Of a DNA stretch of 64,000 nt, positions 20,758 to 24,168 are shown one piece after another. The stretch comes from Shigella phage vB_SsoM_113. The notes beneath the pieces are model-generated. The model was given only the letters and a program-made list of their open reading frames with translations. It searched no databases and had not been told where the DNA came from. Numbering within the stretch: position 1 is the stretch's first letter; every line of letters begins with the position of its first letter. The stretch lies in the sequence record LR746311; one strand, 5' to 3'. The position numbers and the translations under genes were made by a program.

Positions 20758-20925
20758 ATGTCAGATAAGATTTGTGTTGTCTGTAAAACTCCAATCGATT
20801 CTGCATTGGTTGTTGAAACAGACAAAGGTCCTGTACATCCTGGGCCTTGTTATAATTACATTAAAGAACTACCAGTTTCAGAAAGTTCGGAAGAACAATT
20901 AAATGAAACACAACTTTTGCTATAG
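20758..20925 (+). CDS. small Cys-rich protein (55 aa), uvsY.-2 position; not in the ORF track
   Basis: ATG preceded by GAGGAG; translation MSDKICVVCKTPIDSALVVETDKGPVHPGPCYNYIKELPVSESSEEQLNETQLLL (CxxC...C spacing). Confidence 0.5.
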   Translation: MSDKICVVCKTPIDSALVVETDKGPVHPGPCYNYIKELPVSESSEEQLNETQLLL

Positions 20926-20948
20926 TGTGACCTTTAGTCTATAGTTTT

Positions 20949-20977
20949 GGCCCTTCCTTTTTGGTTGGGCCTTTTTT
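20949..20977. terminator. stem-loop plus T-run between convergent genes
   Basis: GGCCC...GGGCC followed by TTTTTT; lies between the + strand small ORF and the - strand uvsW.1-like ORF. Confidence 0.5.
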
Positions 20978-20980
20978 AAT

Positions 20981-21211
20981 TTAAAAGCTTTCTTCTACTT
21001 CATCGTCTGAATCTTCTAATTCAGCTCTTTTTCCTGCCAAAGCATCTCTCACAGAGATGTCATCAGTATCTTTTAATTCAGTTTCTTTAACTCTTTTCTT
21101 GTAATAAGCTTCAAGTTCTTCTAGACCTTCTATCGTTTGACAAGAGGCAATTTTACCCATAAATTCATCAATAGAAGCTTCATAAAGAAATTGTTTAAAT
21201 TCTAGTAACAT
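20981..21211 (-). CDS. uvsW.1: UvsW.1-like small acidic protein (76 aa)
   Basis: Track ORF begins at a TTG (21223); the ATG at 21211 follows a GGAG RBS and gives 76 aa, the T4 UvsW.1 length. Confidence 0.65.
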   Translation of the reverse strand: MLLEFKQFLYEASIDEFMGKIASCQTIEGLEELEAYYKKRVKETELKDTDDISVRDALAGKRAELEDSDDEVEESF

Positions 21212-21236
21212 CTTTTTCTCCAAAGGGCCGAAGCCC

Positions 21237-21929
21237 TTATAAATTAACTGTTTTTCTAAGTATTCTTAGTTTGTACATTGATAATCCAGTAGCTTTAGAA
21301 GCATCTTTCATACATTTATACTTAACACCATTTACTTCTATAGGTTTAGCAGCTGGGTTATTAGCTCCTGAATTATCTGGCATGTTATCTTTAATTTTCT
21401 GAATAGATTTAGCGGAATGCTTCCTTCCATACATGCCGTTATTTTTACCCGATTGATTGATTGAATGTAATCTTTTAGCTTCTTCAGTCCATTTCGTTGG
21501 GTTCATTCTTTTAGTTTTACTAATTTTATTTCCCCATGTAATTGGACGGCTTTTCATGAGTTTTGACATATATTGTTTATGTTCTTCCGTATGATGTTTT
21601 CCGTAAAATGGATTACCTTCGCCGGATTGAAGTTCTGCCATTTTACGACGTTCCCATGCGTAAGATTTATTGACGTGTCTTTCATGAGTATTTGAATTCA
21701 TTCCCATACATATAACGGCTTTAATTATACCGTAATGATTTGGATGAATTTTAGCTAAAAGTTTATGGGCTATAAAATGTTCTTCAGCCGTTAGTTCTAC
21801 TAAATTACACTTATCATCTGTACCACCCATACATCTAGGAATTATATGATGAGTTTCAGTGTATCCATTAAGGCGAGCCCGATTCTGGGCTCTATTAATT
21901 AAATTATCATATATTAATTTATAATTCAA
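21237..21929 (-). CDS. HNH homing endonuclease (free-standing, mob-like)
   Basis: 230 aa; HNH motif THHIIPRCMGGTDDKCNLVELTAEEHFIAH; C-terminal NUMOD-like repeats (NPFYGKHHTEEHK, NNGMYGRKHSAKS) and an HTH-like tail. Only possible start upstream of the HNH histidines is a TTG overlapping the uvsW TGA stop. Confidence 0.8.
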   Translation of the reverse strand: MNYKLIYDNLINRAQNRARLNGYTETHHIIPRCMGGTDDKCNLVELTAEEHFIAHKLLAKIHPNHYGIIKAVICMGMNSNTHERHVNKSYAWERRKMAELQSGEGNPFYGKHHTEEHKQYMSKLMKSRPITWGNKISKTKRMNPTKWTEEAKRLHSINQSGKNNGMYGRKHSAKSIQKIKDNMPDNSGANNPAAKPIEVNGVKYKCMKDASKATGLSMYKLRILRKTVNL

Positions 21930-23437
21930 AGTTTAACCTCTTTCATCACATAATTAAACTTTTCATCAGCATAACGCTGAATACGATCAAGTCCATGTTT
22001 TAAAAGATAGTTTAAATGCGAGTATTTTTTAGAAGATGTTTTTGATTTAGAAACTACGCCCGCGTCATCTATAAGATCCCAGACCGTTGCGATTGTTTTA
22101 GAACCATGCTTACGTAATACGCGACCTATTGTTTGCAATACAATAATTTTAGATTTAACACCGTGTGCTAAAACAACGTGATGCAGATTTTTAACTGAAA
22201 TACCAGTAGAAAATACACCATAACTAGCTACTATAATTATTCCTTTACCGTTTTCAGCTAAGGTTTTCATTACATTGCGGGTTTCGGTATCAACTTCCCC
22301 TGATACGTAATAAACTTTATCGTATTCATTTTTAATTAAATCGAAAATAGCTTTACCGTGCGATACGTGTTTAAACATGACAAAAGCATTTTCATCTTTT
22401 TGCGCAAGCTTAATAGCTAATTTAGCGATCCATTTATTTCTTTTACTGAGCCCAGTAATAATTTTTATTTCTTCTTGGTAAGTTTTTCCCTTTAATTTAG
22501 TAGTGAACTCATCGGGATAGCGAAGAAAAATACTATTAATTTTTAACTCAGTTACTTGTCCATCTTCCATTAATTTAGAGGTCGTTACTGGCTTAAATAT
22601 TTCACCGAACATTCCAACATACTGCATGATATTAGCTTTGCCATCGCGCAATGAACCAGACAAACCAAATTTAAACATACAGTTATTTAAACCTGATATG
22701 ATAGATGAAATACTTTTTCCTGTAGCAAGATGACATTCATCATTCATCATCATTCCAAACTGTGAGAACCATTCTTTTGGTTGTTTTACTACAGTTTGCC
22801 ATGTACCAACAACGACTGGTGCATCATTTTTATATTTATCATCTTTTGATGCTCCACCGCCGATTTTCTTTATCATTGCATGACTGAATAAACGATAGTC
22901 AACAAAGTCATCAGCCATCTGAGTTGTCAGAGCAGTTGTTGGAACAATGATAAGAATTTTACCTTCATAATTTTCCAAATAATACCGAGCGAGCAAAGCT
23001 TGAATTAAAGATTTACCTGCGGATGTTGGAAGATTAAGAATTCTACGACGATTAACTAATCCTTCGAACACTGCATCTTTTTGATACCAATGCGGTTCAA
23101 TTCTTTTATTTCCTGAATAGATTTCTAATTTAGAAAGCCATTCATCAAAATCTTTTCTTGATAATTCTTCTTTTTCGTTAATTTGCGGGTCAATCCAGGC
23201 TTTATAGCCAAAGTTATCACAGAACTTTTTAATTTGCCCGACTAAACCGAATGGAAGAAGGCGATTATAATCTAAAAGACGAATTCGTCCATCCCAGTGG
23301 CCATATTTGTATTTCGGATTAAAACGATACCCATCAGCTTCAAAGCTAAAGAAATCACGGAGTTCATGAAATGTGCTTTCTTCACAATCAATTCTCACGT
23401 GACTAAAATCATAAAAATGTACTTTAATGTCAGTCAT
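21926..23437 (-). CDS. uvsW: UvsW ATP-dependent DNA/RNA helicase
   Basis: 503 aa; Walker A (TSAGKS), DECH box (MMMNDECH) and later helicase motifs; length matches T4 UvsW. Confidence 0.92.
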   Translation of the reverse strand: MTDIKVHFYDFSHVRIDCEESTFHELRDFFSFEADGYRFNPKYKYGHWDGRIRLLDYNRLLPFGLVGQIKKFCDNFGYKAWIDPQINEKEELSRKDFDEWLSKLEIYSGNKRIEPHWYQKDAVFEGLVNRRRILNLPTSAGKSLIQALLARYYLENYEGKILIIVPTTALTTQMADDFVDYRLFSHAMIKKIGGGASKDDKYKNDAPVVVGTWQTVVKQPKEWFSQFGMMMNDECHLATGKSISSIISGLNNCMFKFGLSGSLRDGKANIMQYVGMFGEIFKPVTTSKLMEDGQVTELKINSIFLRYPDEFTTKLKGKTYQEEIKIITGLSKRNKWIAKLAIKLAQKDENAFVMFKHVSHGKAIFDLIKNEYDKVYYVSGEVDTETRNVMKTLAENGKGIIIVASYGVFSTGISVKNLHHVVLAHGVKSKIIVLQTIGRVLRKHGSKTIATVWDLIDDAGVVSKSKTSSKKYSHLNYLLKHGLDRIQRYADEKFNYVMKEVKL

Positions 23438-23466
23438 GTCTAAATACCATGTAATAAATATATCTA

Positions 23467-23474
23467 TATTTATA
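23467..23474 (-). promoter_or_regulatory. late promoter motif (TATAAATA on - strand) upstream of uvsW
   Basis: + strand TATTTATA about 30 nt upstream of the uvsW start codon. Confidence 0.4.
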
Positions 23475-23487
23475 CTGAGGAAATATT

Positions 23488-24168
23488 ATGATAGATAAAG
23501 ATTATATTGCAGAGCTGAAGGCTCTTGATGATAATAAAGAAGCTAAAGCTAAATTAGCTGAATATGCTGAACAGTTTGGTATAAAGGTCAAAAAGAATAA
23601 ATCTTTTGATAATATCGTTAATGATATTGAAGAAGCTCTCCAGAAGCTCGCTAGTGAACCTATGCCAGAGACTGATGGGTTATCTATTAAAGACTTAATT
23701 GATGCTGCTGATGCTGCAGACGGATTAAAATATGACGATGAAGAAGTCAATCCAGAGGCAGCACTTCTGATTGATTCTCCGGTTAAATCTGACATTAAAA
23801 TTGAAGTAGTAGAAACGGATAAAATTCCTGAAAATACTGATGTTTTGATTGAAGATACTCCTTTTGTTGAAGAAAAATTCGAACAGGCTGTAGCTGAGAT
23901 TATTGAATCTGAAAAGCCGTCTGTATTTACTCTTCCGGAAAACTTTAGTCCGAATCTTCAGCTGATTGGAAAAAATCCAGGATTCTGCACTGTTCCTTGG
24001 TGGATTTATCAATGGATTGCTGAAACCCCAGATTGGAAATCTCACCCAACTAGTTTTGAACACGCGTCGGCACACCAAACTTTGTTTAGCTTAATTTATT
24101 ACATTAATCGTGACGGATCAGTTCTAATTCGTGAAACACGCAATTCTTCTTTCGTAACATTAAAATAA
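23488..24168 (+). CDS. inh: Inh, inhibitor of prohead protease (hoc.1)
   Basis: 226 aa as in T4 Inh; located immediately upstream of hoc. Confidence 0.8.
   Translation: MIDKDYIAELKALDDNKEAKAKLAEYAEQFGIKVKKNKSFDNIVNDIEEALQKLASEPMPETDGLSIKDLIDAADAADGLKYDDEEVNPEAALLIDSPVKSDIKIEVVETDKIPENTDVLIEDTPFVEEKFEQAVAEIIESEKPSVFTLPENFSPNLQLIGKNPGFCTVPWWIYQWIAETPDWKSHPTSFEHASAHQTLFSLIYYINRDGSVLIRETRNSSFVTLK

Follow-up and report, generated by a model that had tools for sequence, protein, structure and literature searches.

T4 SegE is a GIY-YIG endonuclease whose gene is inserted between inh and uvsW, and it cleaves the uvsW of phages that lack segE. More generally, the free-standing endonuclease genes of T4, such as those encoding MobA-D and MobE, are typically promoter-less cassettes within existing operons, they are sporadically distributed, and their products cut at a distance and co-convert the flanking sequences (Edgell-Gibb-Belfort review, PMC2988022). 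In two further cases, the nrdA gene split by mobE in Aeh1 and the gene 39/60 split associated with mobA in T4, an HNH gene lies between co-expressed open reading frames (ORFs) of one pathway, and there the relatives without the homing endonuclease gene (HEG) have one contiguous gene. Here we describe a locus of Shigella phage vB_SsoM_113 (sequence record LR746311) in which an HNH ORF stands between uvsW, the gene for a recombination and repair helicase, and the small gene uvsW.1. The window, that is, the whole stretch of 64,000 nucleotides (nt) analysed, comes from a Tequatrovirus, a T4-like phage, and its 2.6-kb uvsW region is 98.5% identical to that of Escherichia phage Killian and 96-98% identical to those of T6, PST, ACG-C40 and others. 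This ORF is very probably a free-standing homing endonuclease gene of the T-even 'Mob' type, carried as a promoter-less cassette at the coupled junction of uvsW and uvsW.1.

The closest characterised relative of its product is T4 MobE, with 42% identity over the N-terminal 168 amino acids (aa) and a common N-terminal signature (MNYxKIY...HHIIPRCMGG...NLV.LT.EEH..AH), and across the HNH motif there is around 80% nucleotide identity to T4 mobB. However, mobE lies between nrdA and nrdB, whereas the HNH gene of the window is inserted at uvsW/uvsW.1 and the C-terminal half of its product is formed by NUMOD3 repeats and an I-TevI-like helix-turn-helix. It also differs from the T4 Mob genes in that its start codon strictly overlaps the upstream stop codon. 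With I-TevI (1i3j) the protein shares a module made of a minor-groove helix and a helix-turn-helix, and a nuclease tethered to this DNA-binding module by an extended linker; nevertheless, its catalytic domain is HNH and not GIY-YIG, and its gene is free-standing and not intron-encoded. I-HmuI was not matched in the sequence and Foldseek searches, the likeness to it being one of architecture only. Like segE, the gene is a free-standing HEG tied to uvsW, but it belongs to another nuclease family, it lies at the opposite end of uvsW, and segE itself is not present in the window. Finally, the position between co-expressed ORFs of one pathway recalls Aeh1 nrdA and T4 39/60, but in our case the HEG-free relatives all have two ORFs. 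On every point that sequence analysis can address, the gene resembles those of MobE, SegE and SegG, and it would work as they do; the support for an HNH target site is linkage, and endonuclease activity and homing are predicted by likeness to these three enzymes.

The HNH gene, its start codon and the limits of the insert

The HNH gene occupies positions 21237-21929 of the window on the minus strand (693 nt, 230 aa). Its product matches Pfam NUMOD3 in two stretches (51.8 bits against a cut-off of 20.4) as well as PHROG 655, 'homing endonuclease' (9e-61), and it has the residues of an HNH motif (H27-H28, N42 and H51/H55), of which H28, N42, H51 and H55 are invariant in 27 homologues. These matches and residues support the HNH homing-type endonuclease that an earlier sequence-only reading of this DNA had proposed. 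A match to the I-TevI DNA-binding domain 1i3j covers residues 156-215 (phmmer E 0.006; Foldseek probability 0.99), and from N- to C-terminus the protein consists of an HNH nuclease, NUMOD3 repeats and an I-TevI-like DNA-binding module. Such a modular tethered architecture predicts that cleavage takes place at a distance from the binding site.

Regarding the start codon, the TTG of the HNH ORF (21929-21927) overlaps the TGA of uvsW (21928-21926) in the context cTTTGA. The next in-frame ATG, GTG or TTG is found at Met34, downstream of the catalytic His-His (27-28), and therefore the TTG is the sole start that keeps the HNH domain. Homology confirms this start, since M1 and Y3 are invariant in the 27 homologues, with an N-terminus MNY(K/Q)KIYD conserved from residue 1, and the orthologues start with ATG, GTG or TTG at precisely the equivalent position. 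A GAGG Shine-Dalgarno (SD) sequence is located 7 nt before the TTG (21937-21940, minus strand), inside the replaced last codons of uvsW (AAA GAG GTT), and AAAGAGG precedes the start in all three distinct TTG lineages and is not found in the ATG and GTG lineages.

The overlap of start and stop has the form NTGA in the eight HNH-carrying lineages (ATGA in 3, TTGA in 4 and GTGA in 1), and its conservation while the first base varies among A, T and G supports the translational coupling that had been deduced from the overlap in this phage. At the other end, the 3' end of the HNH gene overlaps or abuts the ATG of uvsW.1 in most lineages. The native uvsW/uvsW.1 junction of HNH-free Dhakavirus and Klebsiella phages is also ATGA, and as these phages use the same device, the HNH ORF would have been slotted into a pre-existing coupled junction with the chain preserved. 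All this points to an HNH ORF translationally coupled to uvsW. In the window an 11-bp hairpin is also predicted (21927-21962, minus strand, z = -2.3), in which the uvsW codons AAAGUUUAAUU pair with GGUUAAACUUU, covering half of the SD and two bases of the UUG. RNAalifold found no conserved base pairs for a hairpin occluding the SD and the start across seven lineages; a masked ribosome-binding site was dropped as a general mechanism, the structure being unconserved in the six other lineages.

The limits of the insert were determined by alignment with T4 and HNH-free Tequatroviruses, whose native arrangement is ...FNYVMK TVNL TAA followed by GGGCTTCGGCCC, TTTGGAGAAAAAG and ATG. The insert follows ...ATGAAA, 15 nt upstream of the native uvsW stop, so that UvsW now ends in EVKL-TGA, and the replaced codons also provide the GAGG and the TTG. 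The native tail AAAACAGTTAATTTATAA (KTVNL*) marks the right junction (21237-21254, minus strand), and the HNH ORF now ends in its five codons and its stop (...RKTVNL*). The same is true of the Dhakavirus HNH, which ends in MKQVDL*, the native uvsW tail of the JS98 type, and of a third lineage with IKQVEI*. Next comes a GGGC-TTCG-GCCC hairpin, GGGCTTCGGCCC (21225-21236, minus strand), which is the native Tequatrovirus intergenic element between uvsW and uvsW.1, and then the GGAG SD of uvsW.1 (21218-21221, minus strand). The hairpin, the GGAG and the start of uvsW.1 are identical in the HNH-free Tequatrovirus relatives and are therefore excluded from the insert.

The earlier claim of an insertion exactly at the junction holds for Roth16 and for the loci L043 and L045, where the insertion point is exactly the split point (ATGA on both sides), but not for this phage, where the insert precedes the native stop and the downstream stop, hairpin and SD are intact. 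We also considered whether the uvsW 3' end is duplicated over a longer stretch at the right junction and rejected this, because the similarity beyond the retained tail of 18-21 nt is explained by a conserved C-terminal motif of the HNH protein (RNL/RKL).

The division between uvsW and uvsW.1

The sequence-only reading suggested that the HNH insertion had split an originally single gene. Under this explanation an ancestral uvsW was divided by the HNH gene, like Aeh1 nrdA by mobE, and most lineages later lost the HNH gene and kept the split. In eight lineages the HNH clade is indeed found precisely where uvsW meets uvsW.1, and its divergence roughly parallels that of UvsW, which means that its residence there is old, and ATGA overlaps bound the gene on both sides in Roth16, L043 and L045. 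However, we consider such an origin very improbable, because the HNH-free relatives examined all have the two ORFs. In 30 out of 30 HNH-free T4-like loci from IMG/VR (UvsW identity 71-98%) a stop follows a homologous ...MKxVxL and uvsW.1 is a separate ORF, and two ORFs were also reported in T4, RB69, RB49, RB43, 44RR and Aeh1, six genomes that reach as far as Aeh1 (Nolan et al. 2006, PMC1524935). The close HNH-free relatives keep the arrangement of stop, hairpin, GGAG and ATG; in general, the HNH-free lineages have a tidy native coupling, either ATGA or stop-hairpin-SD-ATG, and not the scars of a deletion. Moreover, the insert of the window interrupts the uvsW tail 15 nt ahead of the native stop.

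A fused UvsW-UvsW.1 was not found either. All 74 close UvsW.1 homologues obtained by a word-indexed search were between 52 and 96 aa long, and when 1.84 billion representative proteins were searched exhaustively with a HMMER profile, none of the 35 matches was a helicase-UvsW.1 fusion. The sequence-only reading was correct in that uvsW and uvsW.1 are directly adjacent in T4, and the alignment with T4 that it proposed gave a native layout of two ORFs; nevertheless, for its statement that UvsW.1 is fused to UvsW in other phages no example was found among those representatives, and the proposed search for a phage with a fused UvsW found none. The sole 'fused' UvsW is the 587-aa ORF of T4, which is an acknowledged sequencing error: T4 was corrected at uvsW/uvsW.1 by resequencing (PMC1524935; see also PMC6486255), but the annotation of its RefSeq record NC_000866.4 continues to show a UvsW of 587 aa extending into uvsW.1. 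This record has TTAATAAGCTTCGGCCC where the relatives have TTATAAGGGCTTCGGCCC, a net difference of -1 base inside the GC hairpin, which is the place of the compression error in the T4 reference; the same T4 site (L001 5185-5200, at the uvsW 3' end) can also be written TTAATAAGCTTCGG against TTATAAGGGCTTCGG in the relatives. The idea of a fusion most likely traces to NC_000866.4.

The loci compared indicate that the split of uvsW and uvsW.1 is an older and universal feature of T4-like phages, which the endonuclease exploits and did not cause. A tempting wrong story is thus corrected, as the split is no genes-in-pieces event and the 'fused UvsW' is an artefact still present in the T4 RefSeq.

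Regarding UvsW.1 itself, its domain was found at the N-terminus of metagenome proteins of around 290 aa (P0213, P0215 and P0216; 260-300 aa), one of them with a weak cytidylyltransferase-like match at the C-terminus, whereas the other larger matches of the UvsW.1 profile were weak PPR-repeat noise. Since it is N-terminal in these proteins, the domain appears to be mobile between proteins; none of them joins it to the UvsW helicase. Its presence in unrelated proteins also hints at an independent origin of UvsW.1, which is a further point against a gene split by the HNH insertion. In its structure, UvsW.1 is reported to resemble the accessory DNA-binding modules found at the C-terminus of RecQ helicases, which is a point in favour of a gene split.

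Distribution, mobility and the linked uvsW tract

The HNH gene was present at uvsW/uvsW.1 in 48 of around 503 records of at least 90% identity, RefSeq/GenBank duplicates being included in both counts; among the carriers are T6, PST, ACG-C40 and HY03. T4 and most of the other records lack it, and two HNH-free loci (L007 and L008) have a 98% identical UvsW. Orthologues with 54-70% identity were found in seven other T4-like lineages, always between uvsW and uvsW.1, specifically, in Klebsiella phage Roth16, the Dhakaviruses ESCO10 and PSD2002, Morganella phage Rgz1 and three metagenomic contigs. The HNH gene is a separate ORF outside any intron or intein, and uvsW is complete without it. In GenBank it is labelled 'homing endonuclease' (T6), 'mobD' (PST) or 'mobile endonuclease E' (W143); the last two labels are annotation transfers and do not denote orthology. 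In the papers mentioning uvsW.1 that we consulted, we found no description of an endonuclease at this junction. These genes define a site-specific clade of Mob-type HNH endonucleases carried by T6 and many coliphages that are therapeutic candidates, a clade for which there is now a precise insertion site, a mobile unit of around 0.83 kb and a predicted target.

Among six Tequatrovirus HNH alleles the ratio of nonsynonymous to synonymous divergence (dN/dS) was 0.03-0.07 at a dS of 0.15-0.19; therefore, the gene is under strong purifying selection. The 693-nt ORF is intact in these six translated alleles and in UFV-AREG1. In BF15 (L047 397-984) the ORF is truncated to 588 nt, the sequence being 4 nt shorter, and the C-terminal helix-turn-helix is lost; this may be a decaying copy or an assembly error. 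The truncated ORF of BF15, together with the non-canonical TTG start and a Pfam HNH score under the cut-off, could be taken as signs of an inactive relic, a decaying gene that is unexpressed because of its weak TTG, or inactive, and persists by linkage. Of the explanations that we weighed this is the least probable one, given the low dN/dS and the ORF intact in every other copy examined. In addition, none of the catalytic residues varies, every TTG lineage has a strong AAGAGG to accompany its start codon, the NTGA overlap is conserved, and the HNH gene has recently been transferred between Dhakaviruses.

That transfer was seen in the comparison of ESCO10 with PSD2002, where an island of 96-97% identity begins some 130-160 nt short of the uvsW stop and runs through the final base of the HNH gene, whereas the flanks in uvsW and uvsW.1 are only 83-85% identical and the identity falls again at the first codons of uvsW.1. 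Thus, a unit formed by the last 130-160 nt or so of uvsW and the HNH gene was laterally transferred between Dhakaviruses. In Tequatrovirus, the HNH-carrying phages share a 146-nt haplotype at the uvsW 3' end which differs by 27-29% from that of the HNH-free relatives, whereas the rest of uvsW differs by less than 2%, and the records with this haplotype are exactly the records with the HNH gene (48 of 48). In Tequatrovirus the linked tract has its left edge around 140 nt upstream, and in Dhakavirus this distance is around 130-160 nt. In the window this divergent tract corresponds to positions 21926-22070 (minus strand), a co-transferred 'exon' tract that probably contains a site of self-immunity.

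At the other end of uvsW, T4, T6, HY03 and LH2 carry segE (GIY-YIG) between inh and uvsW. The first 200 nt or so of the window uvsW (region 23200-23487) differ from the segE-carrying phages by 10-18 nt per 60 nt and from most of the segE-free phages by 0-3 nt per 60 nt, although OES_C-2 reaches 9 in one 60-nt window. SegE is likewise linked to a divergent tract, here the first 200 nt or so of uvsW, and all four combinations of segE and HNH occur. Since the two elements assort independently and each has its own tract, uvsW appears to be flanked by two independent endonuclease-linked tracts. With segE at its 5' side and the HNH gene at its 3' side, uvsW could be a compact natural system for the study of marker exclusion, co-conversion and target-site immunity.

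The cassette would work as follows. The HNH gene would be transcribed together with uvsW from the late promoter, and ribosomes terminating at the uvsW TGA would start the HNH ORF at the overlapping TTG, assisted by the GAGG within the codons that replace the end of uvsW. By analogy with MobE, SegE and SegG, the enzyme would cut an HNH-free uvsW during a mixed infection, in its last 150 bp or so or at the junction, the best candidate cut site being the patch coding for GVKPKSAN-KKKYVH, 90-135 bp upstream of the insertion point. Recombinational repair from the HNH-carrying genome would then copy the HNH gene together with the adjacent 140 nt or so of uvsW, and this co-copied tract would carry a recoded sequence resistant to cleavage.

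A candidate cleavage site and the weight of the evidence

The patch in question, which we call patch A (22016-22062, minus strand), is a recoded UvsW motif and a candidate recognition and cleavage region in HNH-free genomes. GVKPKSAN(T/A)KKKYVH is near-invariant in HNH-free phages across genera, but in the HNH-carrying haplotype it is recoded to GVVSKSKTSSKKYSH, with 21 of 46 nt different, whereas beyond patch A the differences of the linked tract (around 90 nt) are mostly synonymous. The change of SANA to SK(D/N/T)S recurs in the HNH-carrying Dhakavirus, in Rgz1 and in the contig L044. The linked tract has its left edge immediately 5' of patch A in Tequatrovirus as well as in Dhakavirus, as is expected if the sequence from the break to the gene is obligatorily co-converted. 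The cleavage target may lie in patch A, 90-135 bp upstream of the insertion point, with a chance that we put at even or a little less; a target that spans the insertion junction and is destroyed by the insertion itself is also possible. If the site is in patch A, a selfish nuclease would be driving amino-acid change in a core recombination helicase. A compensated frameshift was ruled out as the origin of patch A, because the alleles align codon by codon in the same register.

The HNH-free phages LH2 (L038 2500-2650) and OES_C-1/2/3 (OES_C-2 being L039) have the GVVSKSKTSSKKYSH patch joined to a distal tract and tail of the T4 type. They are natural recombinants or alleles left after the loss of the HNH gene, and they could be cleavage-immune empty sites if patch A is the target.

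Several points weigh against the homing endonuclease reading. In the protein, the Pfam HNH model scores 16.8 bits, below its cut-off of 21.4, and Foldseek, with an AF2 model of pLDDT 81, places the HNH domains of Cas8-HNH, McrA and Gme near the top only with weak E-values (0.2-2). The structure search gave no PDB match confirming an HNH fold with E <= 0.05; these E-values are weak because the model is an extended multi-domain chain. In the RNA, the hairpin predicted to occlude the SD and the start in the window lacks conservation. In the DNA, the HNH-carrying Roth16 and L045 retain an unaltered SANA motif, and therefore patch A is no universal determinant of immunity. Finally, the more similar two lineages are in UvsW, the more similar they are in the HNH protein (r = 0.84 over 28 non-independent pairs), HNH identity being 10-20 points lower, which would also fit a gene long resident by vertical descent and, in most lineages, of low recent mobility. 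It does not follow from this correlation that the endonuclease is older than the split, as no fused outgroup that could polarise it was found.

The same correlation would also be expected of a domesticated partner, that is, an HNH protein co-opted into the recombination and repair work of UvsW and UvsW.1, for instance as a nicking or fork-processing nuclease, and kept because it benefits the phage. Both the strong purifying selection and the place of the gene within a coupled operon, the same one in eight lineages, agree with such a role. Nevertheless, the gene is carried by around 10% of the Tequatroviruses and is missing from most T4-like lineages, which means that it is dispensable; the island-like transfer and the linked divergent flank are signatures of homing, and among characterised proteins MobE, a homing endonuclease, is the nearest relative. 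Domestication is therefore very unlikely in our opinion, if slightly less so than a gene split by the insertion. Under the homing endonuclease reading, the data fit a long residence at the junction, with transfer mainly among close relatives and frequent loss. A bolder version of it, an ancient resident of one coupled junction that shields its own genome through the recoding of a UvsW motif otherwise almost without variation, can only be put forward tentatively, and we incline somewhat against it. Specialists in T-even mobile elements would not be surprised by these findings.

Transcription signals and other features of the locus

On the minus strand, the locus consists of a late-promoter consensus, uvsW, the HNH ORF, a hairpin, GGAG, uvsW.1 and a hairpin with A/T runs. 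The ORF coordinates and sizes given by the sequence-only reading, as well as its TTG/TGA overlap, hairpin, GGAG and 76-aa uvsW.1, were all confirmed on the sequence, and tblastn found no second copy of the HNH gene in the window.

The T4-type late promoter TATAAATA (23467-23474, minus strand) lies around 30 nt upstream of uvsW, and its function is suggested by the T4 late-promoter consensus. It is the single exact match of TATAAATA on the minus strand within 20900-23500, and it is therefore the likely source of a transcript covering uvsW, the HNH gene and uvsW.1. There is no exact late promoter inside the HNH ORF or before uvsW.1, only sites with one mismatch, namely TATAAATT (21916-21923, minus strand), within the first HNH codons, and TATAAATG (21313-21320, minus strand), within the HNH ORF and around 100 nt upstream of uvsW.1. 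The latter could supply uvsW.1 with a separate late transcript, like the promoters embedded in other T4 endonuclease genes.

The uvsW gene (21926-23437, minus strand) encodes a 503-aa helicase of superfamily SF2 for recombination and repair, with the replacement tail ...FNYVMK-EVKL and the stop TGA, and its product matches Pfam UvsW_N (3.9e-43), ResIII, DEAD and Helicase_C. In the T6 record MH550421 (L002 3232-3244), uvsW is annotated as uvsW plus uvsW-B, and tblastn shows a change of frame near residues 352-355, which is due to a genuine frameshift or to an error in the sequence and is unrelated to the HNH insertion.

The uvsW.1 gene (20981-21211, minus strand) starts with the ATG at 21211 and encodes a small helical protein of 76 aa (Pfam UvsW-1, 7.3e-30); the 80-aa version that mechanical ORF calling gives, with a TTG further upstream as its start, is an artefact. 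A GGCCC...GGGCC hairpin with flanking A and T runs (20949-20978, not assigned to either strand) separates uvsW.1 from uvsY.-2, which converges on it; a simple hairpin scan missed this hairpin because its loop is longer than 8 nt. It is a conserved bidirectional terminator, as described between these two genes by Nolan et al. 2006 (PMC1524935).

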